Notes under the pieces: generated by a model
The model's database searches: none
The model's input: only the letters and a program-made list of their open reading frames with translations
What the model was told of the DNA's origin: nothing
Part shown: one piece after another, positions 1-40,444 of the stretch
Layout: the number at the start of each line of letters is the position of its first letter
Position numbering within the stretch: position 1 is the first letter of the stretch
Virus genome (UHGV): UHGV-1410056
Reading direction: 5' to 3' (one strand)
Length of the DNA: 40,444 bases
DNA from: a virus
Made by a program: the position numbers and the translations under genes

Positions 1-17
1 ATTGAGTGGGAATGATT
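1..17 (+). repeat. attL core direct repeat ATTGAGTGGGAATGATT
   Basis: Exact 17-nt copy of 40428-40444; flanked by inverted repeat GGAATGA (9-15) / TCATTCC (38-44), a possible integrase core-binding pair. Confidence 0.7.
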
Positions 18-61
18 AACAGCTAACTCATAGCAACTCATTCCTATTCAGATACTAATTT

Positions 62-94
62 AACCCTCTGTAAAAACAGAGGGTTTTTGTTTTT
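62..94 (+). terminator. Rho-independent terminator just inside attL
   Basis: Stem AACCCTCTG (62-70), loop TAAAAA, stem CAGAGGGTT (77-85), then TTTGTTTTT. Confidence 0.6.
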
Positions 95-150
95 ATGTAT
101 TCATTTCTATTCACTATACACCATATTTTTCGTCGGTACAGGTGACGGTA

Positions 151-165
151 TTACCTTAAAGGTAT
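151..165. promoter_or_regulatory. Operator-like palindrome TTACC-ttaaa-GGTAT upstream of int (one mismatch to TTACC-N5-GGTAA)
   Basis: Member of the dispersed TTACC-N5-GGTAA family; nested in a larger inverted repeat GACGGTA (144-150) / TACCGTC (173-179). Confidence 0.5.
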
Positions 166-207
166 ACTCTCATACCGTCATGAAAATGGTTTCTATACGG
201 GTGAATT

Positions 208-1458
208 GTGCTTACCGATACAAAATTAAAAAACCTCAAGCCGCAGGACAAACTGTACAAGGTCTCCGATCGTGACGGGCTGTATGTAGCTGTGCTTACG
301 TCAGGCACGGTCTCGTTTCGCTATGACTACCGTATCAACGGTCGCCGCGAAACACTGGTAATCGGGCAGTATGGGCGTGACGGTATCAGCCTGGCAGAAG
401 CGCGAGAAGAACTGATTGCTGCAAAGAAGCTGCTTAAAGCAGGCCAGTCACCGGCTGCGGCTAAACGTGACGGTATCAAAAAGATTCGTGGTGCCGAGAC
501 GTTTGCGGTACATACCGACAGTTATATGAAACACGTCATCCTGGCTGACAGTACCCGCGCAATGAAACAGGCGGTGATCGACCGTGACATACTTCCGGTT
601 CTTGGCAATAAAATGATGGCTGAAATTACCACATCGATGGTTCGTGATTTGTGTGACCGGATTGTCGAACGCGGTGGCCGGGCAACAGCAGTGCAGGCCA
701 GGGAGATCATCAGTAGCGTATACCGTCACGCCAATGACCGTGGTCATGGTTTGTTTAATCCTGCGGCTGACATTAAACCTTCGTCTATCGCCATATTTAA
801 ACCACGAGAGCGAACACTGACACCAGAAGAAATTGGCCTGTTCTTCCGCACGCTGGATGCCATTGGTGCTATGGGCACTATGAAAATGGCTTTAAAACTG
901 GTGCTTATCACTATGGTTCGTAAGGGCGAATTCACCAATGCAACGTGGGATGAAATAGATTTTAAAAAATGGACATGGACAATTCCTCCAGACCGCATGA
1001 AGGGAAGCCGGGCGCACGTTATTTACCTGCCTAAACAGGCACAGGATATATTGGTCGGGTTGCAGATGTGCGCTGGTGGAAGTGAATATCTGGTTCCTGG
1101 TCGTTACAATTTCCGGAAGCCATTATCTAATGCCGCGCTGAACTCTCTGATCGACAGAACGGTGAAAATAATAAATGAAGATGGTGAGCATATTCAGGAC
1201 TTCACTGTACATGATATGCGCCGTACAGCCAGTACGTTGTTGCATGAGGCTGGTTATCCTTCAGACTGGATTGAAAAGGCTCTGGCACATGAGCAGAAAG
1301 GTGTGCGCGCCGTATATAACAAAGCGGAATACGCCAGACAGCGCGCCTACATGTTGCAGCAGTGGGCCGATATGATTGATTCATGGATTGACGGGGAGCA
1401 TACGGATCTGATTCCGTTCTCCCCGTCGAAGTTTGAGAAGTGGATGGCGGGGGAATAA
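208..1458 (+). CDS. int: Tyrosine recombinase, P4-type phage integrase
   Basis: 416-aa ORF, GTG start at 208; N-terminus LTDTKLKNLKP and C-terminal catalytic region (HDMRRTASTLLHEAG ... VRAVYNK) typical of P4-family integrases; adjacent to attL. Confidence 0.9.
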   Translation: MLTDTKLKNLKPQDKLYKVSDRDGLYVAVLTSGTVSFRYDYRINGRRETLVIGQYGRDGISLAEAREELIAAKKLLKAGQSPAAAKRDGIKKIRGAETFAVHTDSYMKHVILADSTRAMKQAVIDRDILPVLGNKMMAEITTSMVRDLCDRIVERGGRATAVQAREIISSVYRHANDRGHGLFNPAADIKPSSIAIFKPRERTLTPEEIGLFFRTLDAIGAMGTMKMALKLVLITMVRKGEFTNATWDEIDFKKWTWTIPPDRMKGSRAHVIYLPKQAQDILVGLQMCAGGSEYLVPGRYNFRKPLSNAALNSLIDRTVKIINEDGEHIQDFTVHDMRRTASTLLHEAGYPSDWIEKALAHEQKGVRAVYNKAEYARQRAYMLQQWADMIDSWIDGEHTDLIPFSPSKFEKWMAGE

Positions 1459-1461
1459 CGT

Positions 1462-1656
1462 TTAATAGTTCTGCTGATTTTCTTCCATCTCTGCTTCTGC
1501 TGCCAGTGATTCAATTTTGTTTTCGAATATTGCTGACAGTGTTGCAAATTCAGCATCAGTGACAGCGGGAATTGGAACAAACCTGATCCCGCTGTGTGCA
1601 AGCATGTTTGCAGTTTCAAGGCATTTTCTTAAATCTGCTGGTGATGCCCTGTTCAT
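1462..1656 (-). CDS. Hypothetical small protein (64 aa), translationally coupled to the methyltransferase
   Basis: ATG at 1656-1654 overlaps the methyltransferase stop (ATGA overlap); ends ...AEAEMEENQQNY; longer track ORF 1462..1776 overlaps the methylase in another frame. Confidence 0.5.
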   Translation of the reverse strand: MNRASPADLRKCLETANMLAHSGIRFVPIPAVTDAEFATLSAIFENKIESLAAEAEMEENQQNY

Positions 1657-2303
1657 GCAGCACGCTCCCGCCCCTGGATGTCTGTTGGTGACAGCGGAGC
1701 ATTGCTGAATGCATTTGTTAATCCGCCAATATCCAACGCGTATCCAGGGTGTAGTTGCACTGCCGGGTCTTCGCACTGATTACCCCAAACATCAAAGCCA
1801 TGAGACGTCTGGCGGGCGAACAGTTCAATGCGAGAAACATCGCCTAATAATTGCACAAGTTTTTCACGAACGATATCTGGCTTTCTTGAATGCTCAAGCC
1901 GCGGTGCGGTAAATGACTGAACGATCCCTGCATTAATGCGCGTAGGTAGTTTTCCCTTTACCGCAAACAGGCAATCTTCACTATTGGCGCGAGTCATGTG
2001 TCCCATACCCATAACCAGTTTATCTGGTTGTCGACTACCACATTTTATCCACGTGAAGCCCTTCATCGTCATCAGACGGAATCCCCAGGCTTCAACAACT
2101 TTTAGTGCTTCGAGTGGTTGTGTTGGCACCCACCACATGGCCAACAGACAGTTTTCATCGGCCAAATCCCACACAGGAAGGCGGCAGATATCCAGCACAC
2201 TCATAACCGGATATTTAAAACCGGCACCGCGATTACCATCTGCGGCTTTGTCCCGGTATACCCAGGGTGGATCTGCATAGATTAGTGTGTATTTCTTAGT
2301 CAT
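1653..2303 (-). CDS. DNA N6-adenine methyltransferase, MT-A70 family
   Basis: Catalytic DPPW motif in IYADPPWVY near the N-terminus; first ATG at 2303 (track ORF begins at GTG 2315). Confidence 0.8.
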   Translation of the reverse strand: MTKKYTLIYADPPWVYRDKAADGNRGAGFKYPVMSVLDICRLPVWDLADENCLLAMWWVPTQPLEALKVVEAWGFRLMTMKGFTWIKCGSRQPDKLVMGMGHMTRANSEDCLFAVKGKLPTRINAGIVQSFTAPRLEHSRKPDIVREKLVQLLGDVSRIELFARQTSHGFDVWGNQCEDPAVQLHPGYALDIGGLTNAFSNAPLSPTDIQGRERAA

Positions 2304-2547
2304 AAACCACCCCACAACATCCTATGCCGCTATAGTCGCCACGGCGAAGGCCGTTACCTTTTGTGATACATTGGTCCCTGCGAACCGCGATCCTTGCACG
2401 TTCAACATCACCAGAAGCAACATCCATACACTGAAGCCAAAGGTGAGCGGCAATGCGGAATTGCCCTTTTTTCTCTCTTTCAATCGCGCGTTTTTCGATC
2501 TCTATCGCCGCAGGAGTAACGGCGACAATCTTTGACGGACTGCGCAT
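2296..2547 (-). CDS. Hypothetical protein (about 83 aa)
   Basis: ORF in track (2296..2595); start chosen at ATG 2547 (MRSPSK...) with AAGG 8 nt upstream; 8-nt overlap with methylase start. Confidence 0.4.
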   Translation of the reverse strand: MRSPSKIVAVTPAAIEIEKRAIEREKKGQFRIAAHLWLQCMDVASGDVERARIAVRRDQCITKGNGLRRGDYSGIGCCGVVYD

Positions 2548-2704: not shown

Positions 2705-2953
2705 TCATGCAGCGTTGCTCACGGGACGATATACACGTTGCTGAACAGGAGGCTTTTTACCCTGGAACTCTGCCGGGCTTGCTGCCTGACGTTCATCAAG
2801 CCAACGCTCAACTTCATCACGGTTCCATGCGCAGCGTTTATCGGTGATATACCAGCGTTTAGGAAATTCCCCTGCGCGCTCCATACGGTCGATAGTGCTC
2901 CATGACAGTGGCACCACCGCCAGGAGTTCTTTCTTACCTAATGCACCTTTCAT
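2705..2953 (-). CDS. AlpA-family DNA-binding protein (excisionase-like regulator)
   Basis: 82 aa; winged-helix-like core LSWSTIDRMERAGEFPKRWYITDKRCAWNRDEVERWL resembles AlpA/Xis family; SD AGAGAGG upstream. Confidence 0.6.
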   Translation of the reverse strand: MKGALGKKELLAVVPLSWSTIDRMERAGEFPKRWYITDKRCAWNRDEVERWLDERQAASPAEFQGKKPPVQQRVYRPVSNAA

Positions 2954-3002: not shown

Positions 3003-4025
3003 TTACTCGAATTCTGGACGCATATCGTTAAGCGTCATCATGAATTTTTGGTGATATTCATCACCGAGCTTTTCAGCCATGGTGTTAATTTCATTTTCAG
3101 CGCGCTTGAACATCGTTTTTGCATCTTCAGCAGATGGATCCAGGCTATTAAGTATCGCGATGATATATTCTCGAGCTTCTTCTCGTTCTGAATCTGAAAT
3201 TGGCGACAGGTGTTGACGCTCATCGTCAACTACGGAATATTCACCAGTGATAACAGCTGCGTTATCTTGGCTAAGTCCAGCTTCAGCGCGCTCATCCATA
3301 ACAACAGCCTTCTGCATTTCAATAGAAACAGGAAGATATTTGAACAGTCGGCGAATTACTGTTTTTTTAGCCATCTCATCGAAGTGATCAACCCATGGGC
3401 CACTGCTACCGGCTTTGCTCAGTGCACGAACTTTCTCAACGTCTGCCCGGCTCATAACTTCAAATTGGACTCCGCCATCTTTCAGTCGTGCAACGGCGTA
3501 AACGTGCGTTAATTCTCCGCGGTCACCTGTTTCGCAAGGTAAATGCTCGAGCGTTTCTTCCAGGCCGTATGAGTAGCTGAATTTGTCGTTTGTATGTACG
3601 GTACGAGCCGAGATACTCAGGATCTGCCCAGAGCGGCGGGCAAGGTCAATCATTCCGCGATAGCCGATAATCAGCTGTGCTTCTGTAGATACGGTTTCCC
3701 ATCTTCCATTTACTTTCTGGCGTTTGTCGAACGGTATCAGGTAAGCGTGTCCAAGAGCTCCGCCTGGTTCAAGACCCAATTGGGCACATTGCATAATTGC
3801 CCCCAGGAAGCTGGCTTGGTCGCATGATGCAAGTTTTGGAACCTTTCTGATCTCTGTGGTTGCTATGCGCGCCAGACGGTCTGCTGTCATGTGCTTTGGA
3901 AGTGCCAAAGCCATCTGAGCTTTAATTTTTGGGTCTGCCAGAAGTCCGGCCAGAGTTGTTGGTTTCTCATTATGATGTGCAACTTGGTTACCGGTAGCCG
4001 CTGCCTTAAGTGCATTGATAGACAT
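3003..4025 (-). CDS. recT: RecT-family single-strand annealing recombinase
   Basis: 340 aa; RecT-like core (ISARTVHTNDKFSYSYG ... HVYAVARLKDGGVQFEVMS); AAGGAG SD; immediately downstream of the YqaJ exonuclease gene. Confidence 0.8.
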   Translation of the reverse strand: MSINALKAAATGNQVAHHNEKPTTLAGLLADPKIKAQMALALPKHMTADRLARIATTEIRKVPKLASCDQASFLGAIMQCAQLGLEPGGALGHAYLIPFDKRQKVNGRWETVSTEAQLIIGYRGMIDLARRSGQILSISARTVHTNDKFSYSYGLEETLEHLPCETGDRGELTHVYAVARLKDGGVQFEVMSRADVEKVRALSKAGSSGPWVDHFDEMAKKTVIRRLFKYLPVSIEMQKAVVMDERAEAGLSQDNAAVITGEYSVVDDERQHLSPISDSEREEAREYIIAILNSLDPSAEDAKTMFKRAENEINTMAEKLGDEYHQKFMMTLNDMRPEFE

Positions 4026-4034
4026 TTTTTCTCC

Positions 4035-4934
4035 TTACTTCATTCTGAAGACGCGTTGTGTCGTTGTTGTTTTGAATTTTTCGAATAACTCAGGGTGTAC
4101 TGACTGGAATAGCTTCTGGTCGAATCTGTTGCTGATCTGAGATTTCCATGTGCAGAGCGGCTTTCCGTCCAGGGTCAGGACTGAGTGCTCTTGCATGTAC
4201 ATCTTCAGCTTCTCTTCTGATATAGCTATTTCTTCTTCCAGTGATTTTCTGCGTGATTTCATGTCTCGTAGATCGTTGAATAGTGCGAGTGCCTTTCCGT
4301 CAGCCTCGATACTTGTCCCGGCATCTTTCTCAAACATCAGCGATACATCGCTTACGCTGGTAGCTTCCGGCGGGTTAAGATTTTTCACTCGGTCCCAGAA
4401 AGCGATTTCTTTTTCTAAGATCGCCTGGATAGTTTCTTCATCACGCTCAACCCGATAGATTCGGAAGTCGTCGCCACCGATAAGCACACCGAAAACGCAT
4501 ACCTGTTTGTTTGTAACCATCAACCCGTGCATGGCCTGGGCCGTGTAATGCACAGGAATTGCATCTGTCTGGATTTCTCCCCATTCTTTGGCTTTGAACG
4601 GACTAACTGTTTTGATCTCAATGTTCTCGCCTGACGCTGCTTCTGCATCGATCTCAGCTGCAATAAAATCGTAATCACGGTGGATATAGCGGTTTCCGCG
4701 ATGAACGATTTCCATCCCTGTTTCCTCAGAAAGCAGGTCTATTACGTATGGCTCCATACGCTGGCCACGCGTGAAAACTTTCTGCTTGCTTGGGTCTACT
4801 GGTTTGACACGTGGCTGGACCTTATCCAGATAAACCTCAAGCGGGGTGCGCCATGGGCTAATTCCAAGAATCCCTGCAACATCGCTTCCTCCGATGTATT
4901 TTGTTCTATCCATGATTCCAGCGTTCCGCATCAT
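4035..4934 (-). CDS. YqaJ-type phage exonuclease (RecE/lambda-Exo-like partner of RecT)
   Basis: 299 aa; N-terminal GGSDVAGILGISPWRTP signature of YqaJ viral recombinase nucleases; ATGA overlap with upstream gene. Confidence 0.75.
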   Translation of the reverse strand: MMRNAGIMDRTKYIGGSDVAGILGISPWRTPLEVYLDKVQPRVKPVDPSKQKVFTRGQRMEPYVIDLLSEETGMEIVHRGNRYIHRDYDFIAAEIDAEAASGENIEIKTVSPFKAKEWGEIQTDAIPVHYTAQAMHGLMVTNKQVCVFGVLIGGDDFRIYRVERDEETIQAILEKEIAFWDRVKNLNPPEATSVSDVSLMFEKDAGTSIEADGKALALFNDLRDMKSRRKSLEEEIAISEEKLKMYMQEHSVLTLDGKPLCTWKSQISNRFDQKLFQSVHPELFEKFKTTTTQRVFRMK

Positions 4935-5539: not shown

Positions 5540-6124
5540 TTATTGTTTGCTTTTTTCGTTCTGGTTGATGACAAATTCAATGTAACTTTCGATCTTTGCT
5601 TTCTCGGTTTCGGGTAACAATGCGTAGCGTGAGCGGTCATAGTTGATAGTCGCAGGGTCGTGCGGGTGAATCAGTAGTTCATATCCGTGACGCCCGAATG
5701 CGGATGCAACATTCTCCAGGGTGGAAATGGAAACGCTGACCTCATTGTTTAACAGGCGGCTGATTGTCACCTGGGCGACGCCGGATGCGCGGTGAAGTTT
5801 TCCCTGTGTTGAAAGGTCGCGGCTTTCGCTCATCCAGCGTTCCAGGTTGTGAGCCGCCAGCTGACCTATATCGCTCGGGCCGACAGGCTGAAAACCCTCC
5901 TGAGAAAGCGAACGATCAATATCAAGCCAGTTACGGGGTTTATTGGCGGCAGCTTCAATTTTTCGTGCAACCTGGTCGCCGATAACCTTCTTGCCAAGAG
6001 CCCAGCGGTTTACCAGATTTGCCTGAGTTCCAAGTTTTTCTGCCATCCGCGTCTGAACACCATTGAATTCACGGTCGATCAAGTCGTTGAGATTTTGCCT
6101 GCGGACGTCCTGGATACTTTTCAT
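5540..6124 (-). CDS. CI-like phage repressor with two HTH (XRE-type) domains and no S24 peptidase domain
   Basis: 194 aa; two HTH-like segments (TRMAEKLGTQANLVNRW... and ASGVAQVTISRLLNNE...); no Ser/Lys autocleavage module; divergent from Cro-like gene; no SD before ATG (possibly leaderless). Confidence 0.7.
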   Translation of the reverse strand: MKSIQDVRRQNLNDLIDREFNGVQTRMAEKLGTQANLVNRWALGKKVIGDQVARKIEAAANKPRNWLDIDRSLSQEGFQPVGPSDIGQLAAHNLERWMSESRDLSTQGKLHRASGVAQVTISRLLNNEVSVSISTLENVASAFGRHGYELLIHPHDPATINYDRSRYALLPETEKAKIESYIEFVINQNEKSKQ

Positions 6125-6179
6125 TTTCTGGAAAATCGCCTCATATATGAATCAGTAGATGATTCAATTTAAAGCAATA

Positions 6180-6242
6180 TTACCCAACAGGTAAATGCAC
6201 CTCATAGGTAACTATCCTTGATTTTTGTTACCTTATGGGTGA
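6180..6242. promoter_or_regulatory. Putative OR region: three adjacent operators (6180-6194 perfect; 6197-6211 GCACC variant; 6228-6242 GGTGA variant)
   Basis: Lies between divergent repressor and cro-like genes; candidate rightward promoter TTGTTA-17-TATTAT overlaps the third site. Confidence 0.6.
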
Positions 6243-6278
6243 ATATTTATTATCTGAAATAAATATCAGGCAATAGCT

Positions 6279-6509
6279 ATGAGCGATAACGGACATTTCG
6301 ATTTCAAAAAGCACTGGCTTGCACTTACTCCGGATGAGCGTGAAGCCTTCGCACAGGAAGCCGGAACGACGAGTCACTATATCCAGACTCACTTAACAGG
6401 CAAGCGCAAAATGCCAGGTAAAGTATTGATGAATGGGCTTTTTAAAGCCTGTAAAACAAGACAATGGCTGCGCTCAAAAGCAGAACTGGCATACTTCTTC
6501 TACTCATGA
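6279..6509 (+). CDS. Cro/YdaS-like small HTH regulator
   Basis: 76 aa; divergent from repressor; HTH-like segment DEREAFAQEAGTTSHYIQTHLTGKRKMP. Confidence 0.55.
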   Translation: MSDNGHFDFKKHWLALTPDEREAFAQEAGTTSHYIQTHLTGKRKMPGKVLMNGLFKACKTRQWLRSKAELAYFFYS

Positions 6510-6657: not shown

Positions 6658-6870
6658 TTGAAGATAGTAACCAGAATGGAGGCCGCAAAAGCCGGGTTAA
6701 ATCGCTATTTCACAGGAAAGCGGTGCCGTCACGGCCATCTCTCTGAAAGGTATGTTCTGAACGGAACATGTGTTGAATGTGCAATGAATAGCGCCAACCG
6801 CCATCGTAATGAATTTGCTTGTGCACTAAAGAGTGCAAGAGGGGAAACCTATGGCAAGCAGCTGGATTAA
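6658..6870 (+). CDS. Hypothetical small Cys/His-rich protein at the cII position
   Basis: 70 aa, TTG start with AGGGGCGG upstream; Cys/His cluster (CRHGH ... CVEC) suggests zinc binding; sits between cro-like and O-like genes. Confidence 0.4.
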   Translation: MKIVTRMEAAKAGLNRYFTGKRCRHGHLSERYVLNGTCVECAMNSANRHRNEFACALKSARGETYGKQLD

Positions 6871-7681
6871 GGTTGAAGTTATCACTCCTGATAAACCTGA
6901 AATTTTTCAGATAGCAGAAATTCTGGGTATTGATCCAGATGCTGTTCTTGGAAAGCTGGTTCGTATATGGGCATGGGCTGACCAGCAAACAATAGACGGT
7001 AACGCTGGCAGCGTTACAAAAGGAGTACTTGATAGACTCGCTTTTATTACAGGATTTGCTGACGCCCTCATTAGCGTCGGATGGCTTGCTTATCATGACG
7101 GCAAACTAATTCTTCCAAACTTTGAGCGACATAATGGAGAATCATCGAAAAAACGTGCACTTACGAATAGAAGAGTGGCAGAGCATAGAAAACGAGTAAC
7201 GCAAAAAGTAACGCCAACAGCGTTACAAAAGGAGTTACCAGAGGAAGAGGAAGAGGAAGATATATATAAAACCCCACACATAGCGCACGTGCGCGAGGGT
7301 GCTCCGACCAGTGAAGCGAACAGTACGCCGTTGCAGGTGGCAGAACCTGAATTTCTGGATGGCCTGAGTGAACCCATCGGGAAATTTCCGATGACAGATG
7401 GCTGGCTACCGTCGCCAGATTTTCGGCGGCGTGCTGCGCTGTGGGGAACGGCCCTGCCGGAACCGGAATTTACACCTGCTGAACTTGCTGCATTCCGGGA
7501 TTACTGGATGGCTGAGGGCAAAGTGTTCACGCAGGTTCAGTGGGAACAAAAATTCGCCAGGCACGTAAATCATATCAGGGGAAAATCAAAAAATGCCGGG
7601 AAAAGCGATGAGCTTGACTGGAATAACACTGACTGGATAGAAGGGGTGTGGGATGAAATCAACTCCAGAACTTCTCAATGA
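6851..7681 (+). CDS. Replication initiator / replisome organiser (O-like), with DnaT-like C-terminal region
   Basis: Start ATG 6851 with GAGGGG SD; acidic EEEEEED linker; immediately upstream of the lambda-P-like gene; contains iteron-like DNA repeats. Confidence 0.55.
   Translation: MASSWIKVEVITPDKPEIFQIAEILGIDPDAVLGKLVRIWAWADQQTIDGNAGSVTKGVLDRLAFITGFADALISVGWLAYHDGKLILPNFERHNGESSKKRALTNRRVAEHRKRVTQKVTPTALQKELPEEEEEEDIYKTPHIAHVREGAPTSEANSTPLQVAEPEFLDGLSEPIGKFPMTDGWLPSPDFRRRAALWGTALPEPEFTPAELAAFRDYWMAEGKVFTQVQWEQKFARHVNHIRGKSKNAGKSDELDWNNTDWIEGVWDEINSRTSQ
6999..7235. repeat. Iteron-like repeats inside the O-like gene: GTAACGC heptamers (6999, 7196, 7208) and inverted GCGTTAC (7011, 7220), plus 18-bp direct repeat CAGCGTTACAAAAGGAGT (7009-7026 and 7218-7235)
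   Basis: The 18-bp repeat is read in different frames in its two copies, so it is a DNA-level element rather than a protein repeat; candidate origin. Confidence 0.5.
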
Positions 7682-10220: not shown

Positions 10221-10221
10221 T

Positions 10222-10509: not shown

Positions 10510-10512
10510 CAC

Positions 10513-17815: not shown

Positions 17816-17817
17816 TC

Positions 17818-18513: not shown

Positions 18514-18527
18514 GAGAGGAAATGACA

Positions 18528-19514: not shown

Positions 19515-19565
19515 CGCCTGTTATTAACCTGTGGGTCGTAACAGACCCACTAATGGAGAAAGAAG

Positions 19566-20003: not shown

Positions 20004-20013
20004 GGTGATATCG

Positions 20014-20387: not shown

Positions 20388-20399
20388 GCAGGAGTGTAT

Positions 20400-24802: not shown

Positions 24803-24814
24803 GGGGATAATAAG

Positions 24815-29127: not shown

Positions 29128-29132
29128 ATTAA

Positions 29133-32494: not shown

Positions 32495-32514
32495 GGAAAA
32501 CTCCTGATGTGCTT

Positions 32515-32682: not shown

Positions 32683-32694
32683 ATCGCGCCTCCT

Positions 32695-32709
32695 TTACCT
32701 TTAAGGTAA
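32695..32709. promoter_or_regulatory. Perfect TTACC-tttaa-GGTAA operator upstream of the two-gene cassette
   Basis: Lies 13 bp upstream of the start codon of the 55-aa gene. Confidence 0.5.
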
Positions 32710-32781
32710 TAGTACGCTATTCACCCACAGTCTGCAATCTGTACAGAATTATTTAAAGGCACATCCCTGTGCCACCGCCCG

Positions 32782-33492
32782 TCAGAAGAACCCTGCCTTG
32801 TCGTTGATGTATTCCGCGTGGGTCTGGATATCACGCAGGCATTTGCTCACACCGACGATGTAGCAGAACATGGTGGTCAGCTCCGCCGCCGCGCCCGATA
32901 CGTCGTGCCCGTCGTCCTGTAACTGGTTCAGCAGATTCATCAGCAGTGAGTTCTCCGTCAGGCCGAGAACACCAGACGGCGAATTAATCAGGCTGCGGTA
33001 GCCGGGCTTCAGTGGGGCGCTGTAGGTTTTGTTCTCTATCTTCATCGCCTGCATTACTGCTGACGCCGTGGCGTTGGCTACCTGGTCGGCAACCATCTTT
33101 ATGCGTTCTTCCTGCGGGAGCGAGTTTTTAATGTAGCTTCCGGTGCGGCGGATCTGAGGAAGAACCTCACCCGTAACCCATTTACGAAAGCGGTAGGGGA
33201 TAGTGCCTGGTGTCACTGCGTCGCGGCAGCGGAGGATCAGTGTGTAGAGGCCTGACTCGGAGATGATGTTGATCTCTTTTACTCGGCTGTCAAAAATTGC
33301 ACGATGTTCATGCCCTATGTTGAACATAGACCTTTCATCATCATCCAGTTTTTCAAGTGCTTGGGTGACGTTTTGGATACGCAGCGCACTACAAACGTCT
33401 TGGGCTACAAACCATGGTTGGCCATCGATAATGATGGAACGGATAGGGTTAACAGATTCAAATTTGAAGATGGAAGTTTGAGCATTAGCCAT
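32782..33492 (-). CDS. Antirepressor (Bro-N / AntA-type N-terminal domain plus C-terminal domain)
   Basis: About 236 aa from ATG 33492; N-terminal Bro-N-like region (FKFESVNPIRSIIIDGQPWFVAQDVCSAL); C-terminal 80 aa paralogous to the LexA-box gene at 34641-34898. Confidence 0.7.
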   Translation of the reverse strand: MANAQTSIFKFESVNPIRSIIIDGQPWFVAQDVCSALRIQNVTQALEKLDDDERSMFNIGHEHRAIFDSRVKEINIISESGLYTLILRCRDAVTPGTIPYRFRKWVTGEVLPQIRRTGSYIKNSLPQEERIKMVADQVANATASAVMQAMKIENKTYSAPLKPGYRSLINSPSGVLGLTENSLLMNLLNQLQDDGHDVSGAAAELTTMFCYIVGVSKCLRDIQTHAEYINDKAGFF

Positions 33493-33510
33493 GGTGGTTA
33501 TCTCCACTTA

Positions 33511-33524
33511 GTGATTTTAATCAC
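33511..33524. promoter_or_regulatory. 14-bp palindrome GTGATTTTAATCAC just upstream of the antirepressor start
   Basis: Perfect inverted repeat GTGATT/AATCAC 19 bp upstream of ATG 33492. Confidence 0.35.
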
Positions 33525-33648
33525 CACCGCAACGCCAATTACTGGTGGTGAACTGGACAAGGTTGGCGTACCGGCCTAAGTGGTACCGGCGTCCTTTCGG
33601 ACCCCTGCCCAGCCCACCATAATTCGGATATAGCTGTGCTTAACGCAT

Positions 33649-33782
33649 AAAAAAACCACGTCTGGCGTGGTATGCGCCACTTAGTAACCCGGGACGCCAA
33701 TCCCGGCACTGGATTTTGCCAGTGCCCGATTACTATGGCACAAGAGGAGTGCGATGTAAATTTACCGCAAAGGTAATGATAA
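33649..33782 (-). ncRNA. Candidate small RNA or attenuated leader (about 120 nt) upstream of the antirepressor gene
   Basis: Reverse-strand promoter TTGATT (plus 33800-33805) - 17 bp - TATCAT (plus 33777-33782), overlapped by operator 33762-33776; transcript contains hairpins (GGCACTGG/CCAGTGCC; CCGGGA/TCCCGG) and ends at intrinsic terminator CCACG-N5-CGTGG + T7 (plus 33649-33670); no credible ORF. Confidence 0.4.
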
Positions 33783-33869
33783 ACGCGGAGAAATATCAAA
33801 ATCAACCGTATTTGGTTGGTGGCGTTTAACGCTTGATCACCTGAAAGCAAGATATTACCTTTAAGGTAA
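33762..33869. promoter_or_regulatory. Two perfect TTACC-N5-GGTAA operators (33762-33776, 33855-33869) in the divergent control region between the antirepressor side and the zinc-ribbon gene
   Basis: Second operator sits 20 bp upstream of ATG 33890. Confidence 0.5.
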
Positions 33870-33889
33870 TGTTATTGTGAGGAAAAGCA

Positions 33890-34618
33890 ATGGAAGTTTT
33901 CTGGATAGTTGTTGGTGTGGTTGCGGTGATTATTTACGTTATCAACCAGAACAAGACTAAGATCTCTGATCGTACGGTCGTTAATCATAACAAAACGATA
34001 AAGACCGAAGATGGGGAGATAACGATTAATCGTACACAGGTGATAGAACACACCTCTACTCAGTTTCAAAAAACTGGAGGTAATGCGCCTAATATTTCCG
34101 AACCTCCTGCTTATGATAGTGCGGTAATCCAGACATATTGTAAACAGCAGGAGTTAGCAAAAGAGAGGCAACTGATTCAGCCAAAGCCGTTTACAGCTGA
34201 GCTTCCACCTGGAGTATCAATGCGTCCGGCATATCATGGAAGATTCCCTGGTGATGACATATCGTCTCAGTCATCTAAAAAAGCACCTCAGGCAGTATCA
34301 GAGCCAGCAAGAATACCTTCTGTATCGCCGCCAAAAGAAGAATCAGCTAACAGAGTTTCAAGTGGCCGCAAGCAGTGTTTGCGATGCAGAATAAACCTTC
34401 CATATGACAAATTCCGGAAATCGTCAAAAAATCCAGATGGATTGACTAAGTGGTGTGCAAGGTGTCTCGATGGCCCAAAGAATACACGCCATATGAAGTG
34501 GTGCCCAATTTGTAATGTCCGCAGAAAACGGACCAGCTTTTACCCTAATAATCAAAATGCGGACGGCTTAATGGCATGGTGCAAAACGTGCTGGGACGAG
34601 CACAAAGCGAAACGATAG
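33890..34618 (+). CDS. Membrane-anchored protein with C-terminal tandem CxxC zinc-ribbon-like repeats; unknown function
   Basis: 242 aa; N-terminal TM helix (EVFWIVVGVVAVIIYVI); C-terminal repeats CLRCRINLPYDKFRKSSKNPDGLTKWCARC and CPICNVRRKRTSFYPNNQNADGLMAWCKTC. Confidence 0.55.
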   Translation: MEVFWIVVGVVAVIIYVINQNKTKISDRTVVNHNKTIKTEDGEITINRTQVIEHTSTQFQKTGGNAPNISEPPAYDSAVIQTYCKQQELAKERQLIQPKPFTAELPPGVSMRPAYHGRFPGDDISSQSSKKAPQAVSEPARIPSVSPPKEESANRVSSGRKQCLRCRINLPYDKFRKSSKNPDGLTKWCARCLDGPKNTRHMKWCPICNVRRKRTSFYPNNQNADGLMAWCKTCWDEHKAKR

Positions 34619-34640
34619 GCCGCTCTTGCGGCCTTTAAAT

Positions 34641-35093: not shown

Positions 35094-38000
35094 ATGACGG
35101 TCTCAACCGAAGTTGACCACAACGAATACACCGGTAACGGCGTTACGACATCGTTTCCGTATACTTTTCGAATTTTCAGAAAATCAGACCTGGTTGTTCA
35201 GGTGTCTGACCTGAACGGAAACGTAACAGAATTGGTTCTGGATACCGGTTATACGGTAACTGGGGCGGGCACTTATAGTGGCGGTTCTGTGGTTCTTCCG
35301 TCTCCGCTTGCTACTGGATGGCGAATTACGATAGATCGTGTGCTTGATGTAGTGCAGGAGACAGACCTTCGCAATCAGGGAAAATTTTTCCCCGAAGTGC
35401 ATGAAGATGCCTTTGACTACCTGACGATGCTGATCCAGCAATGTTTTGGGTGGTTCAGACGTGCATTGATGAAACCATCTTTGCTTGCAAAATATTACGA
35501 TGCAAAGCAAAACAAAATTTCTAACCTTGCAGATCCATCATTTGAGCAGGACGCTGTAAATAATCGCTCAATGCGTAATTATGTCGATGCTGCAATCGCC
35601 GGGGTTGTTGGTGGTTTTGGTTGGTTTATTCAGTATGGTTCTGGGGCTGTGTACCGAACGTTCCAGGATAAAATGCGTGATGCTATTAGCCCCAAAGATT
35701 TTGGAGCTGTTGGTGATGGTATAAATGACGATTCCACTGCAATAAGCGCGTGCCTTGAAGCCTCATCTCCAGGTTATAAAATTGACGGATTAGGGCTTAC
35801 TTTTAAAGTATCAACTCTTCCGGATGTCAGTCGATTTAAAAATGCTCGTTTTTTATTTGAGAGAATACCGGGCCAGCCTCTTTTTTATGCTTCTGAAGAT
35901 TTTATCCAGGGAGAGTTATTTAAAATTACAGATACACCGTGGTACAACGCCTGGACGCAGGATAAAACGTTTGTATATGACAATGTCATCTATGCGCCTT
36001 TTATGGCTGGAGACCGCCATGGTGTAAATAACCTCCATGTTGCATGGGTTCGCTCAGGAGATGACGGGAAGACCTGGACAACGCCGGAATGGCTTACAGA
36101 TTTACATGAAAACTATCCCACAGTTAACTATCACTGCATGAGTATGGGGGTTGTCAGAAATCGCCTTTTTGCTGTAATTGAGACGCGGACCGTGAGCGGA
36201 AATAAACTGCAGGTTGCAGAGTTGTGGGATCGCCCAATGAGTCGCAGCCTTCGCGCTTATGGTGGTATAACGAAAGCAGCAAATCAGCAAGTCGCTTATA
36301 TTCGCATTACTGATCACGGATTATTTGCTGGTGATTTTGTCAACTTCTCAAACTCTGGTGTTACAGGTGTTACCGGGAATATGACGGTGACTACTGTTAT
36401 TGATAAAAATACTTTTACAGTTACGACGCAAAATACCCAGGATGTGGATCAGAATAACGAGGGTAGATACTGGAGTTTTGGTACATCATTTCACTCGTCA
36501 CCATGGAGAAAAACCAGTCTTGGAACTATTCCTTCTTTTGTTGACGGAAGCACTCCTGTTACTGAGATTCACAGTTTTGCGACGATTAGCGATAACAGTT
36601 TTGCTGTTGGCTACCATAATGGTGATATTGGTCCACGCGAGCTTGGGATACTCTATTTCTCTGATGCTTTCGGTTCTCCTGGTAGCTTTGTTCGCAGACG
36701 CATACCTGCAGAATATGAGGCGAATGCATCTGAGCCATGTGTAAAATATTATGATGGCATTCTGTATCTGACGACCAGGGGGACATTAAGTACTCAACCC
36801 GGTAGTTCATTGCACAGAAGCTCTGATTTAGGTACATCATGGAATTCTCTTCGCTTCCCAAATAATGTTCATCACTCAAACCTTCCTTTTGCCAAAGTTG
36901 GCGATGAGCTGATTATTTTTGGCAGTGAGCGCGCATTTGGTGAGTGGGAAGGAGGAGAACCTGATAACCGTTATGCAGGAAATTATCCAAGAACATTTAT
37001 GACCAGAGTTAACGTCAATGAGTGGAGTCTGGATAATGTAGAGTGGGTTAATGTTACTGATCAGATTTATCAGGGCGGAATAGTTAACTCTGCAGTTGGT
37101 GTTGGTTCAGTTTGTATCAAAGACAACTGGCTGTACTACATTTTCGGTGGGGAAGACTTTCTAAACCCATGGAGCATAGGGGATAACAACAGAAAATATC
37201 CTTATGTTCACGATGGTCACCCGGCTGATTTGTATTGTTTCAGGGTGAAAATTAAACAGGAAGAATTTGTTTCAAGGGATTTTGTCTACGGAGCCACTCC
37301 TAACAGAACGCTTCCTACTTTTATGTCGACGTCAGGCGTGAGGACGGTTCCTGTACCCGTTGATTTCGCAGATGATGTTGCCGTCCAGTCACTGACTGTC
37401 CATGCAGGTACATCAGGACAAGTTCGCGCGGAAGTCAAACTTGAGGGTAATTACGCCATTATTGCGAAGAAAGTACCGTCTGATGATGTTACCGCTCAGA
37501 GATTAATCGTTAGCGGCGGTGAAACAACGTCTTCAGCAGATGGTGCAATGATAACGTTGCATGGTTCCGGAAGCAGTACTCCACGTCGCGCGGTATATAA
37601 CGCACTCGAACATCTTTTTGAGAACGGAGATGTTAAACCTTATCTTGATAATGTAAATGCTCTTGGTGGTCCGGGAAACAGGTTCTCGACAGTTTATCTT
37701 GGCTCCAATCCTGTGGTTACCAGTGACGGAACATTAAAGACAGAGCCGGTCTCTCCTGACGAAGCATTGCTGGATGCCTGGGGTGACGTCAGGTATATCG
37801 CTTATAAATGGCTGAACGCTGTCGCTATAAAGGGGGAAGAAGGGGCGAGGATACATCATGGTGTAATCGCGCAGCAACTTCGTGATGTTCTTATTTCTCA
37901 CGGACTCATGGAAGAAGAAAGCACAACATGCCGCTATGCCTTTCTTTGCTATGACGATTATCCCGCAGTATATGATGACGTCATTACTGGCCAAAGGGAA

Positions 38001-38213
38001 ATGCCGCTGACTGATAATGACGGGAGCATCATTGTTGATGAGGATGATAATCCAGTGATGGTAATGGAAGACATCATTGAGCGCGTTGAAATAACGCCAG
38101 CAGGATCTAGATGGGGGGTCAGACCTGATCTCTTATTCTATATCGAGGCAGCATGGCAGCGCAGAGAAATGGATAAGATAAAAGAGCGGATTCAGTCTCT
38201 GGAAGAACGTTAA
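35094..38213 (+). CDS. Tailspike: endo-N-acetylneuraminidase (endosialidase) with C-terminal intramolecular chaperone domain
   Basis: 1039 aa; T7 gp17-like N-terminal head-binding region; two sialidase Asp-boxes (SGDDGKTW, SSDLGTSW); long collinear match to K1F-type endosialidase catalytic region as I recall it; C-terminal about 162 aa resemble the autocleaving chaperone domain with predicted cleavage at Ser877/Asp878 (37722-37727). Confidence 0.8.
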   Translation: MTVSTEVDHNEYTGNGVTTSFPYTFRIFRKSDLVVQVSDLNGNVTELVLDTGYTVTGAGTYSGGSVVLPSPLATGWRITIDRVLDVVQETDLRNQGKFFPEVHEDAFDYLTMLIQQCFGWFRRALMKPSLLAKYYDAKQNKISNLADPSFEQDAVNNRSMRNYVDAAIAGVVGGFGWFIQYGSGAVYRTFQDKMRDAISPKDFGAVGDGINDDSTAISACLEASSPGYKIDGLGLTFKVSTLPDVSRFKNARFLFERIPGQPLFYASEDFIQGELFKITDTPWYNAWTQDKTFVYDNVIYAPFMAGDRHGVNNLHVAWVRSGDDGKTWTTPEWLTDLHENYPTVNYHCMSMGVVRNRLFAVIETRTVSGNKLQVAELWDRPMSRSLRAYGGITKAANQQVAYIRITDHGLFAGDFVNFSNSGVTGVTGNMTVTTVIDKNTFTVTTQNTQDVDQNNEGRYWSFGTSFHSSPWRKTSLGTIPSFVDGSTPVTEIHSFATISDNSFAVGYHNGDIGPRELGILYFSDAFGSPGSFVRRRIPAEYEANASEPCVKYYDGILYLTTRGTLSTQPGSSLHRSSDLGTSWNSLRFPNNVHHSNLPFAKVGDELIIFGSERAFGEWEGGEPDNRYAGNYPRTFMTRVNVNEWSLDNVEWVNVTDQIYQGGIVNSAVGVGSVCIKDNWLYYIFGGEDFLNPWSIGDNNRKYPYVHDGHPADLYCFRVKIKQEEFVSRDFVYGATPNRTLPTFMSTSGVRTVPVPVDFADDVAVQSLTVHAGTSGQVRAEVKLEGNYAIIAKKVPSDDVTAQRLIVSGGETTSSADGAMITLHGSGSSTPRRAVYNALEHLFENGDVKPYLDNVNALGGPGNRFSTVYLGSNPVVTSDGTLKTEPVSPDEALLDAWGDVRYIAYKWLNAVAIKGEEGARIHHGVIAQQLRDVLISHGLMEEESTTCRYAFLCYDDYPAVYDDVITGQREMPLTDNDGSIIVDEDDNPVMVMEDIIERVEITPAGSRWGVRPDLLFYIEAAWQRREMDKIKERIQSLEER

Positions 38214-38219
38214 AAAAAA

Positions 38220-38239
38220 GCCCGCAATATTTTGCGGGT
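38220..38239. terminator. Hairpin immediately after the tailspike stop; terminator-competent mainly for the minus direction
   Basis: Stem CCCGCAA / TTGCGGG with loop TATT; A8 precedes it on plus (T8 after it on minus); plus-side downstream is TATCAAAAA (poor U-tract). Confidence 0.45.
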
Positions 38240-38519
38240 ATCAAAAACGGAGTTTGTGAAAAGTTATCTTTGAATTCTATCATGAATCAGTACGTATTTT
38301 AAATACATGTTCAGGTTTATTACACCATAGCATTATTAAATACAAAATTAAGTCTATGGTTCCTGTACAACTGCCCCCACTCTGCTGGCTCGTTCTGTAA
38401 AATCATTAGTACTTTTATTGAGATATATGATATGGAACAATAATGATTCATATATGGTTTACTATGCGGGTTTAGTCATCAATAATTGACTGGCTTATAG
38501 ATAGTAAACAGGAGAAAGT

Positions 38520-38924
38520 ATGTCTGCTCAAGTAACAAGTGAGCAATTAAATCAGTTGCTTAGTTTTAGTTCTCTTGCTGCGGTTATTGCAGGTGCCCCT
38601 CCGGAGGTTGCTTTAGGGGCTTTGGCTGGGGCGGTAATTTTTGTTACCTCTGCAGTAGAGTACCCCATCCGTCGCCGGGTGCTCCTGTCGATGCTCAGCT
38701 TTCTTTGCGGCCTTCTCTTTTACAAACCAGCAGCATCAATTCTTATCGGCATAGCCAGCCTGATCCCTACCATCACGCAGGACTCTTTTGAAAAAGGGAT
38801 TGTTTTCTCTGCAGGCGCATTCGTGTCAGCAATTGTCGCTGTGCGTATTGGTATATGGCTCTATCACCGTTCCGATAATCCACGCGAGTTAATTCCGGGG
38901 AGAAAAGACGATGGTAACGCATGA
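38520..38924 (+). CDS. Putative holin (multi-pass membrane protein)
   Basis: 134 aa; 3-4 hydrophobic segments; first gene of lysis cassette; CAGGAGAAAG SD. Confidence 0.5.
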   Translation: MSAQVTSEQLNQLLSFSSLAAVIAGAPPEVALGALAGAVIFVTSAVEYPIRRRVLLSMLSFLCGLLFYKPAASILIGIASLIPTITQDSFEKGIVFSAGAFVSAIVAVRIGIWLYHRSDNPRELIPGRKDDGNA

Positions 38925-39219
38925 GTTTTTTTTGCTTATCACCAATGCAGTTATTTGCACTGGCATAGCAATTCGCGTTGTCACATTCCGGCGTAACGGC
39001 TCTCAACATCGAAGGTGGGGAGGATGGCTTGCTTATTTCCTGATTGTTGCTGCGGCCAGTATTCCTGTTCGAGTCGCCTATGCAATCTGGTTACGTACGC
39101 CAATGGCTGTGGATTTATCTGAGGTCATTATCAACGCTGTCATGCTGGCTGCGGTTATTAAAACGCGCGGTAACGTCGTTCAAATTTTTAAAGTATCGAG
39201 GTCTAAACATGGAGATTAA
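38911..39219 (+). CDS. Second small membrane protein of the lysis cassette (holin/antiholin-like)
   Basis: 102 aa; 2-3 hydrophobic segments; overlaps neighbours at both ends. Confidence 0.45.
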
Positions 39220-39838
39220 ACAATTCCAGCGAGCTGCTGGTATCAGCGAGGCACTGGCCGCACGCTGGTTCTCGCATATAACTTCTGCGATGAAAGAGTT
39301 TGGTATCAGCAAAGCAGAAGATCAGGCAATGTTTATTGCTCAAGTCGGGCATGAGTCTGGGGGCTTCACCAGGTTGCAGGAGAATTTCAACTACAGTGTC
39401 AGCGGACTGGCTAACTTCGTTCGGGCTGGGCGTCTCACTCAGGGGCAGGCTAATGCACTGGGGCGCCGTGCTGGTGAACCACCATTGCCACTTGAGCGCC
39501 AGCGCGCGATCGCAAATCTGGTATACAGCAAACGCATGGGGAACAATGCCCCTGGTGATGGCTGGAATTACCGAGGGCGCGGACTTATCCAGATTACCGG
39601 TTTGAATAACTATCGTGATTGCGGAAACGGTCTGAAGGTTGACCTGCTGGAGAGCCCTGAACTGCTGGCGCAGGACGAATATGCGGCTCGTAGCGCGGCG
39701 TGGTTCTTCGCCAGCAAAGGATGCATGAAGTATACCGGCGATATTGCACGTGTAACTCTGATTATCAATGGTGGCCGGAACGGCATCGACGACCGGCGAG
39801 CGCGGTACATCACTGCCAGTAAGGTGCTGGCGGTATGA
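39209..39838 (+). CDS. Endolysin, glycoside hydrolase family 19 (chitinase-like lysozyme)
   Basis: 209 aa from ATG 39209 (GAGG SD); GH19 signature [12 protein letters not shown]; track ORF 39044..39838 has an implausible N-terminal extension. Confidence 0.75.
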
Positions 39839-40317
39839 TCTGGGCATTCGTAAAAGCATACTGGAAACAGTTTCTTATCGTGGCAGTGCTTGCTGTTCTG
39901 GTCATATCAGGAGTGGTTGCCTGGAATATACACGGCAGTCGCCAGTACGATGCCGGGTATGCTCAGGCGGAAGAAGACCGCAAAGCCGAAGAAGACAAAG
40001 TTCGTCAGTACTACGAACAGGAGAAAGTGACCAATGAACGTGAAGCTCAGCAGAGGATCGACCAGGCGCGCAATGATGCTCTTGATGCTGCCGCTAGCGC
40101 TGGCCGGTTGCAGCAACAACTCTTTGCCATCCGTGAGCAGCTCAGGCAGTATAACGCCATTGTCGGCGCTGGGTCGTCAGCCGCAGACACCGGAGTTTTG
40201 CTTGCCGACGTGCTCAGCAAATCTCTCGAGAGAAACAGACAACTGGCAGAGTATGCTGACCGGGCAGCCGAAGCCGGAAGAGTCTGCGAAAAACAGTACG
40301 ACACTTTGACCAGATAG
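39835..40317 (+). CDS. Rz-like i-spanin
   Basis: 160 aa; N-terminal TM segment then coiled-coil-like charged region; ATGA overlap with endolysin stop; contains an embedded +1-frame lipoprotein gene. Confidence 0.6.
40034..40309 (+). CDS. Rz1-like o-spanin (outer-membrane lipoprotein) embedded in the Rz reading frame
   Basis: Signal peptide with lipobox LALAG-C; Pro-containing mature region; entirely within Rz in another frame. Confidence 0.55.
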   Translation: MNVKLSRGSTRRAMMLLMLPLALAGCSNNSLPSVSSSGSITPLSALGRQPQTPEFCLPTCSANLSRETDNWQSMLTGQPKPEESAKNSTTL

Positions 40318-40427
40318 CATGGCATTTTTCATGGTACTGATTTCCGGTGACGGTATATAAAACGGTACGGGAAAAATTGAGATTTGGAAAAATGTTATCA
40401 CTCAATTGGTTATGGTTATCGTAAATA

Positions 40428-40444
40428 ATTGAGTGGGAATGATT
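40428..40444 (+). repeat. attR core direct repeat ATTGAGTGGGAATGATT
   Basis: Exact copy of 1-17; adjacent inverted repeat CACTCAATT (40399-40407) / AATTGAGTG (40427-40435). Confidence 0.7.

Follow-up and report, generated by a model that had tools for sequence, protein, structure and literature searches.

A 17-bp core at the 3' end of guaA bounds a K1-endosialidase Uetakevirus prophage

Gene content and attachment cores of the window

The window, a 40,444-nucleotide stretch of viral DNA (UHGV-1410056) analysed here over its entire length, begins and ends with the same 17-mer, ATTGAGTGGGAATGATT, which occurs in just these two copies, both on the + strand (Table 1). No third copy was found in the window with up to 2 mismatches tolerated, and two matches were obtained in 0 of 100 shuffled sequences. 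Translation of the core gives I-E-W-E-stop, the C-terminus of GMP synthase (guaA), followed by TT. A tyrosine integrase gene starts 190 bp inward of the left copy, and its product contains an arm-binding domain (Arm-DNA-bind_3, PF13356, 3.9e-20), a central domain (PF22022, 5.8e-12) and a catalytic domain (PF00589, 1.4e-19). Integrase N-terminal domains of solved structure, among them 3jtz ('CP4-like integrase'), match its N-terminus, and its homologue in phiV10 is annotated as cd00801 INT_P4. The P4-type integrase that the initial annotation had placed just inside the left copy is borne out by the PF13356 domain and by the position of the gene next to attL. Candidate catalytic residues read off the sequence are R238 (VRKGE), H335-x-x-R338 (HDMRR), H361 (LAHE) and Y370 (RAVYN), with a spacing similar to that of H308/R311/H333/Y342 in lambda Int, to which the phmmer match of the integrase spans 134-365.

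Table 1. Coordinates of the genes and sequence features of the window
Feature	Position	Strand	Remarks
attL core	1-17	+	bases 1-15 = last four codons and stop of host guaA (IEWE*); published attP/attB core
Left imperfect inverted repeat	3-50 (3-15/38-50)	+	13 nt, 85% complementary
Putative phage-borne substitute guaA 3' UTR, start of P' arm	18-61	+	likeness to native enterobacterial guaA 3' UTRs
Intrinsic terminator	62-94	+	10-bp stem AACCCTCTGT/ACAGAGGGTT, then T-run
Predicted P' arm-type integrase site GTGACGGTAT	142-151		exact copy; inverted partner 172-181 (-), 1 mismatch
Tyrosine integrase, P4-type arm-binding domain	208-1458	+	416 aa, GTG start; Pfam domains
Further exact GTGACGGTAT copies inside int	377-386, 467-476, 720-729 (-)		predicted arm-type sites
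AlpA-family small DNA-binding protein	2705-2953	-	candidate excisionase/recombination directionality factor; 100% identical to ZX5 AlpA
Immunity switch	5540-6509		HTH repressor 5540-6124 (-); divergent cro-like gene 6279-6509 (+)
Replication genes	6851-8429	+	DnaT-like protein and replication protein P
Small and large terminase subunits	12387-14452	+
Phage-carried tRNA-Arg	15118-15194	-	anticodon TCT
Portal, scaffold/protease, major capsid, cement, staple, tail and internal virion (ejection) proteins	15843-31607	+	all full length
Antirepressor module	32782-33725	-	Bro-N antirepressor 32782-33507; upstream C4 antisense RNA 33541-33624 and isrK-type RNA 33649-33725
Endosialidase tailspike	35094-38213	+	specific for the K1 polysialic-acid capsule; C-terminal chaperone domain
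Lysis cassette	38520-40317	+	two holins, GH19 endolysin, Rz, embedded Rz1 (40034-40309)
Predicted P arm-type integrase site GTGACGGTAT	40347-40356	+	within invariant block GTGACGGTATATAAAACGGTA
Right imperfect inverted repeat	40399-40435 (40399-40412/40422-40435)	+	14 nt, 86% complementary
Proposed core-type dyad AATAATT-GAGTGGG-AATGATT	40424-40444	+	ends with attR core
attR core	40428-40444	+	second ATTGAGTGGGAATGATT copy

In ICTV practice, phages sharing at least ~70% genome-wide nucleotide similarity are placed in one genus, and members of the same species normally share 95%. The window aligns with phage ZX5 (MW722083) over 33.2 of its 40.4 kb (~82%) at a mean identity of 98.1%, giving a product of coverage and identity of 80.6%, which would place it in the same genus as ZX5 and below the species threshold. 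Integration at the guaA 3' end via ATTGAGTGGGAATGATT, a Uetakevirus trait, was likewise found, and the annotation of a homologous chromosomal prophage agrees with the Uetakevirus structural gene set. The structural, lysis and integration proteins of ZX5 have full-length counterparts in conserved order, the counterparts of 42 ZX5 proteins lack stop codons, and the packaging, head, tail, lysis, immunity, replication and integration genes show full coverage; all essential genes are intact. The two phages share gene order, the same attP core of 17 bp, which precedes int by 190 bp, and nearly identical integrases (414 of 416 residues, 99.5%), endosialidase tailspikes (99.7%) and repressors (99.5%), with AlpA, the replication proteins and terS at 100%. 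They differ in ~18% of the window, where mosaic modules have been exchanged or gained: the window has another RecT/YqaJ pair for recombination and another nin-like region, its antirepressor and one internal virion protein have diverged, and it carries an additional ORF of 242 aa (33890-34618). Among the ORFs absent from ZX5, a search for defence systems returned an orphan MT-A70 methyltransferase as its sole match. A search of 5426 complete E. coli genomes revealed no identical prophage; the best match covered 95% of the right half at 98% identity.

Integration at guaA and competing readings

The core sequence attgagtgggaatgatt was reported in 2022 as the core common to attP and attB for ZX5, phiV10 and epsilon15, located at the guaA 3' end; for vB_EcoP_ZX5, which integrates there in K1 E. 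coli, attB, attL and attR were amplified by PCR and Sanger-sequenced, confirming the core (PMC9782041). Chromosomal comparisons point to the same site. In E. coli chromosomes the same type of prophage lies between guaA and yfgI; in NZ_CP138217.1 it is flanked by an exact 17-bp repeat, which extends on neither side, and the end of guaA falls on window base 15. Of the 5426 complete E. coli genomes, 4567 carry the reconstructed empty site attB (guaA-yfgI) without a break, in many cases with 100% identity. The attP obtained by joining the window ends is likewise unbroken in the free phages ZX5 (98.7%), phiV10 (96.1%) and epsilon15 (86.6%), and in pHL15EC-2, a 41-kb circular replicon with a single core copy.

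These results uphold the earlier proposals that the 17-mer is the attP/attB core and that a complete prophage lies between attL and attR, and they overturn the statement that the target cannot be named from the window, as the core is the end of guaA and its chromosomal context agrees. The suggested checks, namely a search for the 17-mer in prophage-free relatives and PCR across the att sites, have been published for the near-identical ZX5 (PMC9782041) and were reproduced in silico. In our analysis core identity, target gene, empty site, joined attP, gene integrity and terminator fold were all shown computationally, and integration at the core was established experimentally by others in that near-identical phage. 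As the core includes the guaA stop codon, guaA is uninterrupted and GMP synthase unchanged; integration would replace only the guaA 3' UTR and terminator.

Since no host DNA lies beyond the core copies, the integrated state of this copy is read from its exact att-to-att boundaries. The same want of flanking host sequence, together with the existence of relatives as circular records with one core copy, could be taken to mean that the 17-mer at the two ends arose as an artefact of assembly or circularisation, or that a free circular genome was opened arbitrarily with a duplicated overlap. We reject this reading, which we regard as very improbable, because the repeat has the sequence and the length of the published core: the duplicated stretch is the experimentally defined 17-bp core, as long as in a real chromosome, whereas an arbitrary break would coincide with it in about 1 of 40,000 cases and assembler overlaps usually have the k-mer length and lie at arbitrary positions. 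Moreover, the guaA-attL-int junction sequence is present in >500 E. coli chromosomes. A target other than guaA, with the match being coincidental, deserves even less credence. Such integrases are typically tied to tRNA genes (PMC9782041), but ARAGORN and Rfam detected no tRNA or tmRNA at either end of the window, whose sole tRNA is internal. With the core being the guaA stop region, found under annotated guaA in 20 of 20 listed chromosomes, and the empty site being guaA-yfgI, a tRNA or tmRNA target is ruled out.

A somewhat more serious alternative, though still an unlikely one, is that the element is a true att-bounded prophage which has become cryptic through mosaic replacements or point defects, and can neither excise nor form virions. 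The 18% of the window that differs in content from infectious ZX5 could be cited in its favour, as could two internal virion proteins that are only 64% and 90% identical to those of ZX5. Against this, the genes homologous to those of ZX5 are free of stop codons, with essential genes fully covered; neither att copy has a flaw; Int departs from the active Int of ZX5 in 2 of 416 residues, and AlpA in none; and in place of the ZX5 recombination module the window has a RecT/YqaJ pair of another kind, itself complete. We hold it to be very probable that the window represents an intact temperate Uetakevirus podovirus of the epsilon15/phiV10/vB_EcoP_ZX5 group with a K1-capsule endosialidase tailspike, cut from attL to attR out of an E. 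coli chromosome and integrating at guaA via the 17-bp core.

Predicted attP organization and the substitute guaA 3' end

The motif GTGACGGTAT has 11 matches with at most one mismatch, against 1.68 expected; its exact copies cluster around att, and four are annotated as integrase sites in the epsilon15 record. The copies on the P and P' arms are invariant in six phages. Since the core has predicted arm-type repeats to its left and to its right, attP appears to be of the complex, lambda-like type. The proposed core dyad is 6/7 complementary with a 7-bp spacer, is invariant in the six phages and is centred on the crossover motif of the genomic island GIsul2; a dyad of such quality occurs at 0.2% of positions, with ~145 placements scanned. 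The roles of these arm sites and dyad, of the IHF sites and of AlpA as Xis are predictions from sequence.

Inverted repeats had also been noted beside each core copy. Both are present, but they are imperfect and their pairing is poorly conserved: in six related phages they are kept as sequence and not as pairing partners. In the relatives from Salmonella, Enterobacter and Klebsiella the pairing is eroded and the sequences are still alike. The likeness probably has other causes, such as predicted IHF sites, two of which in the epsilon15 record are overlapped by the right repeat; the counterpart of window 22-58, part of the left repeat, is annotated there as a putative RNase III site. Because they are conserved as sequence and not as pairing, the repeats may not matter as such, and we dropped them as conserved structures or defining features of the element.

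The stretch 18-61 resembles the 3' UTRs that natively follow guaA in Enterobacter, Atlantibacter and Buttiauxella, and is unlike that of E. coli; taken with the terminator, it is similar to guaA 3' ends native to enterobacteria. The terminator downstream of it (62-85 and the T-run) folds at -15.5 kcal/mol (z = -4.9), was likewise detected by an independent consensus scan, and has a stem invariant across six phages; the fold and the invariant stem argue for a conserved role. Of the suggestion that the phage rebuilds the 3' end of an interrupted host gene, the phage-borne terminator stands and the interruption does not, the core itself carrying the guaA stop. In the interval separating the terminator from the int start codon, the consensus scan found no sigma-70 promoter that could serve the gene.

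We propose the following scheme for this guaA-integrating phage. Int would recombine the complex attP with a 17-bp attB comprising the last four codons of guaA, the stop and two bases. In the lysogen, the guaBA transcript would enter the phage 3' UTR and intrinsic terminator (18-94), and the native guaA terminator would be displaced by 40.4 kb to a position behind the phage lysis genes. The 62-94 terminator should end guaBA transcripts in the lysogen and late (lysis) transcripts in the circular phage, and may also insulate int from host read-through. Excision presumably requires Int and the AlpA-type protein. With slightly better than even confidence, we further suggest, as a joint proposition, that the att side of the phage is a diverged copy of ~95 bp of an enterobacterial guaA 3' end and that the guaA stop codon is a hotspot shared by phage and island integrases. 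This copy would comprise the last codons, the 3' UTR with an AGCTA..TAGC element and the terminator with an identical 10-bp stem, and integration would therefore exchange homologous guaA terminators, the native one passing to the lysis operon. Strand exchange probably occurs at GAGTGGG, between AATAATT and AATGATT, a region that would coincide with the GIsul2 crossover.

The core, target gene and integration mechanism of this phage group have already been published, and the observation made in the window is correct but known. Its practical value lies in annotation: the window can safely be given the label of an intact, K1-specific prophage of Uetakevirus at guaA, and the 17-mer, being the end of the GuaA coding sequence, offers a dependable landmark for prophage-boundary callers. 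The terminator swap would let a phage insert where a strongly expressed housekeeping operon ends, with protein and termination unaltered; it extends a well-known principle and establishes no new one.

Relation to known integration systems

The Uetakevirus type members phiV10 and epsilon15 share with the window the attP core, the invariant terminator stem, the structural gene block, an integrase of the same type and GTGACGGTAT sites at equal offsets, their attP regions being 96% and 87% identical to it, respectively. Their receptor-binding proteins differ from that of the window, being for hosts with O157 and Salmonella group E1 O antigens, and genes for O-antigen modification are present in place of the endosialidase. 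The guaA 3' end is also the target of GIsul2, which encodes an integrase and alpA and has an experimentally supported core/crossover, GAGTGGGA, lying within the window 17-mer; unlike the window, it is a 15-kb resistance island, is not a phage and has 19-bp att sites (PMC9376610). In a plasmid protein search the GIsul2 Int was not identified among the matches listed, in which integrases of the same type were 22-36% identical.

A further parallel is the complex attP of phage lambda. In common with it, the window has predicted arm-type motifs repeated on either arm, a segment of identity that is short, an Int with an N-terminal arm-binding domain, predicted IHF sites and a small candidate excisionase. 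Retroregulation of the lambda sib type cannot apply in the same manner, because attP precedes int in the window and transcription of int leads away from the site. Unlike lambda, the element targets the end of a protein-coding gene, whose terminator is supplied by the phage arm.

The attachment core and its host gene

The element is bounded, as had been proposed, by 17-base direct repeats: ATTGAGTGGGAATGATT occurs at 1-17 and 40428-40444, no third copy was found in the window with up to two mismatches allowed, and none of 100 dinucleotide-preserving shuffles of the window yielded two matches. Bases 1-15 read in frame as ATT GAG TGG GAA TGA, encoding I-E-W-E-stop. A prophage of the window's type on the Escherichia coli chromosome NZ_CP138217.1 starts exactly at the stop region of guaA, and the annotated guaA (GMP synthase, ...KPPATIEWE*) ends at the base corresponding to window position 15. 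The 17-mer recurs 40.7 kb downstream, and after it come the native guaA terminator, yfgI, yfgH and yfgG; identity between the two copies is exactly 17 bp, without extension on either side. Of 5426 complete E. coli genomes, 554 contain the left 1.6 kb of the window, junction included; the 20 matches listed all sit under guaA. Hence the target, which the initial annotation held could not be named from the window, is the stop-codon region of guaA. The accompanying remark that the core is not an obvious tRNA 3' end was correct: neither a tRNA nor a tmRNA occurs at either window end, and with the core at the guaA stop codon such a target is refuted. Past base 40444 the right flank would be expected to read TTGATCCCTGCAC...AAAACCCTCTGTTACTACAGAGGGTTTTTT and then yfgI, and on the left guaA (...PPATIEWE) would run into base 1.

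Both the empty and the joined site could be rebuilt from these ends. The predicted attB (617 bases) joins the 3' part of guaA through a single 17-mer to what follows attR on the right. It runs unbroken for 80% or more of its length in 4567 of 5426 E. coli genomes, with 100% identity over 617 bases in all 12 matches listed. The predicted attP, built from the right end, one 17-mer and the left end of the window, is contiguous in the free phage genomes of vB_EcoP_ZX5 (MW722083, hereafter ZX5, a near-identical reference; 98.7%), phiV10 (96.1%) and epsilon15 (86.6%), and also in O157 typing phages 9 and 10, SPN1S, Enterobacter phage BUCT554 and Klebsiella phage BUCT711. These contiguous junctions, and the same 17-mer published for ZX5, bear out its assignment as the attP/attB core. 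A circular form was encountered in pHL15EC-2 (NZ_CP079771.1, E. coli HL15, 1-41027), deposited as a 41-kb circular non-mobilizable plasmid: it has one attP-type junction with core ATTGAGTGGGAATGATG, a 99% identical integrase, and genes for a GDSL-esterase tailspike, an acyltransferase and a YafO-type toxin. This record is a whole, circular Uetakevirus genome related to the window element, and probably represents phage DNA that had excised or was replicating, not a plasmid.

The uninterrupted guaA-yfgI site is missing from 859 of the 5426 complete E. coli genomes and the window-type integrase is found in only 554, so about 300 may hold other elements (e.g. islands like the resistance island GIsul2) or rearrangements at this site. 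In Apirhabdus apintestini (CP138906.1, 4205-6910), a phage-like P' arm (the attP side toward int) and terminator come after guaA, and integrase fragments of 51-79% identity, split over 2.5 kb, come after these; this is a decayed element at the guaA site of a distant Enterobacterales host.

Completeness of the prophage

After rotation of ZX5 to begin at its core, about 82% of the window aligns to it at a mean identity of 98%, interrupted by mosaic replacements (see table). Stop-free window counterparts were found for 42 ZX5 proteins. Coverage is full for the integrase (99.5%), AlpA (100%), the repressor (99.5%), the cro-like protein and both replication proteins, for both terminase subunits, the portal, the capsid and all large virion proteins, and for the tailspike (99.7%), both holins, the endolysin and Rz. 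The recombination genes of ZX5 are missing, whereas a complete pair of RecT and a YqaJ-type exonuclease stands in their place. With integration, immunity, replication, virion and lysis proteins represented at full length, the earlier designation as a complete prophage, with a P4-type integrase gene just inside the left repeat, is well supported in silico. It is very unlikely that the terminal 17-mer is a circularisation or assembly artefact, since the repeat has exactly the sequence and the length of the core defined by experiment. That the prophage is cryptic and non-inducible seems improbable; a gene defect was looked for and none was found.

Coordinates of features in the window
Feature	Position	Strand	Details
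Left inverted repeat	3-15/38-50		13 nt, 85%
Integrase ORF	208-1458		GTG start, 416 aa; Arm-DNA-bind_3, Phage_int_M and Phage_integrase domains
MT-A70 family adenine methyltransferase	1653-2315	-	PADLOC type II MTase model; adjoins int
Mosaic replacements relative to ZX5	3007-4930, 9111-11926, 24268-24926, 32067-32756, 33777-34640
tRNA-Arg	15118-15194	-	Anticodon TCT; between terminase and portal genes
Bro-N antirepressor gene	32782-33507	-	C4 antisense RNA and isrK directly upstream
C4 antisense RNA	33541-33624	-	Rfam match above gathering score
isrK	33649-33725	-	Rfam match above gathering score
242-aa ORF	33890-34618	+	phrog_6762 (unknown function) end to end
Endosialidase tailspike	35094-38213	+	N-terminal extension, beta-propeller, beta-barrel, tailspike domain, C-terminal S74 chaperone
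Right inverted repeat	40399-40412/40422-40435		14 nt, 86%

Architecture of the att region and exchange of terminators

Exact copies of GTGACGGTAT lie at 40347 (P arm, the attP side at the right end of the window), 142 (P' arm), 377, 467 and 720 (minus strand), with an inverted one-mismatch partner at 172-181; with at most one mismatch there are 11 matches in the window against 1.68 expected. Four of the exact copies occupy the same offsets as protein-binding features annotated "integrase" by the depositors of the epsilon15 GenBank record; in the same record three IHF sites are predicted around the core. In an alignment of six attPs, taken from phages that infect E. coli, Salmonella, Enterobacter and Klebsiella, the invariant parts are the P-arm block GTGACGGTATATAAAACGGTA, GTAAATAATTGAGTGGGAATGAT around the core, the stem of the terminator, the loop of which varies, and TGACGGTATTACC in the P' arm; on the left, invariance continues for 7 bp beyond the 17 bases shared with the host, and this extension creates a dyad, AATAATT-GAGTGGG-AATGATT, with arms complementary at 6 of 7 positions and a 7-bp spacer. 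Of about 145 placements scanned around the core it was the best; equally good dyads occur at 0.2% of positions. Its invariant centre coincides with GAGTGGG(A), the experimentally shown crossover core of the unrelated GIsul2 at the guaA 3' end (PMC9376610), and we therefore propose that GAGTGGG might be the overlap region between core-type half-sites. The AlpA-family protein at 2705-2953 would, judging from its family assignment, presumably be needed for excision. Short inverted repeats were indeed found beside each core copy, as initially described, but both are imperfect. A direct repeat, TCATTCCTATTCA/TCATTTCTATTCA at 38-50 and 101-113, brackets the terminator; all six phages keep the CTATTCAC part of its second copy unchanged, which could indicate a site for Xis, IHF or Int.

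The terminator itself, a hairpin at 62-85 with a 10-bp stem, a 4-nt loop and TTTTTGTTTTT behind it, has a folding energy of -15.5 kcal/mol (z = -4.9 against shuffles) and was recovered by an independent terminator scan. This part of the earlier reading stands, except for the notion that the gene is interrupted: because the core carries the guaA stop codon, guaA stays whole, and the change is confined to the sequence past that codon. Once the phage is integrated, the guaBA transcript would run into phage bases 18-94 and meet the phage terminator, which should besides shield int from host read-through; when the phage is circular, this terminator lies 3' of the lysis genes. The native terminator AAAACCCTCTGTTACTACAGAGGGTTTTTT (-19.3 kcal/mol) falls just past attR, downstream of Rz/Rz1.

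The stem of the native E. coli terminator and that of the phage, AACCCTCTGT/ACAGAGGGTT, are identical. With one genome scanned per species, this stem turned up past the guaA stop codon in Escherichia, Enterobacter, Buttiauxella, Dryocola, Atlantibacter, Pseudescherichia, Klebsiella indica and Serratia. An integrase remnant lies downstream at only one of 20 stem loci (Apirhabdus); at several, the host gene yfgG stands 200-500 nt past the terminator, which identifies these as native guaA ends. In alignments, the phage spacer (18-61) shares the element AGCTA(G/A)(T/C)T(C/T)ATAGC and further features with the Enterobacter and Atlantibacter UTRs, features that the E. coli UTR lacks. Given the identical stem and this likeness, the P' arm as far as the terminator resembles an enterobacterial guaA 3' end that has been copied and has diverged. 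Two assemblies are probably contaminated or mislabelled: one labelled Brevibacterium sp. (336-bp contig), with an enterobacterial guaA end and an E. coli yfgI match at 100% protein identity, and one labelled Vagococcus sp., with an E. coli GuaA match at 96% protein identity and yfgG downstream.

Accessory genes and relation to known elements

A phage with this complete endosialidase as its tailspike should recognise the K1 polysialic-acid capsule specifically. Among E. coli chromosomes, the prophages nearest to it come from O7:K1 and O2:K1 (avian pathogenic) strains and from further strains of poultry or human origin. The C4/isrK/Bro-N segment, only 84% identical to ZX5, resembles a P1/P7-style immI module inside a Uetakevirus, in which a small RNA would control the antirepressor. 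Between the antirepressor region and the tailspike, a segment missing from ZX5 encodes the 242-aa ORF, which has a C-terminal endonuclease VII/Lar-like zinc-finger region and no PADLOC match, and could be a moron or accessory gene. The anticodon of the tRNA-Arg reads the rare AGA codon; ZX5 too is reported to have one tRNA, and the annotations of O157 typing phages 9 and 10 include a tRNA-Arg. The methyltransferase is an orphan: no restriction enzyme was seen that could partner it.

ZX5 was isolated on O87:H52:K1 E. coli, and its endosialidase tailspike was already noted (PMC9782041). The attP core of ZX5, attgagtgggaatgatt, precedes the integrase by 190 bp, and the identical sequence is the attB at the guaA 3' end; attB, attL and attR were amplified and Sanger-sequenced by the authors, who state that phiV10 and epsilon15 had earlier been shown to have this 17-mer as attP (PMC9782041). 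The core-to-int distance in the window (core end 17, int start 208) is likewise 190 bp, and the phiV10-like prophage TL-2011b is reported as inserted in guaA (PMC3293862). The initial observation is confirmed and its reading was essentially right; in view of these reports, nothing essential about the guaA target, the core or the mechanism is new. Our additions are modest: the apparent homology of the phage arm with the 3' UTRs and terminators of native guaA genes, and a proposed 7-bp overlap common to GIsul2.
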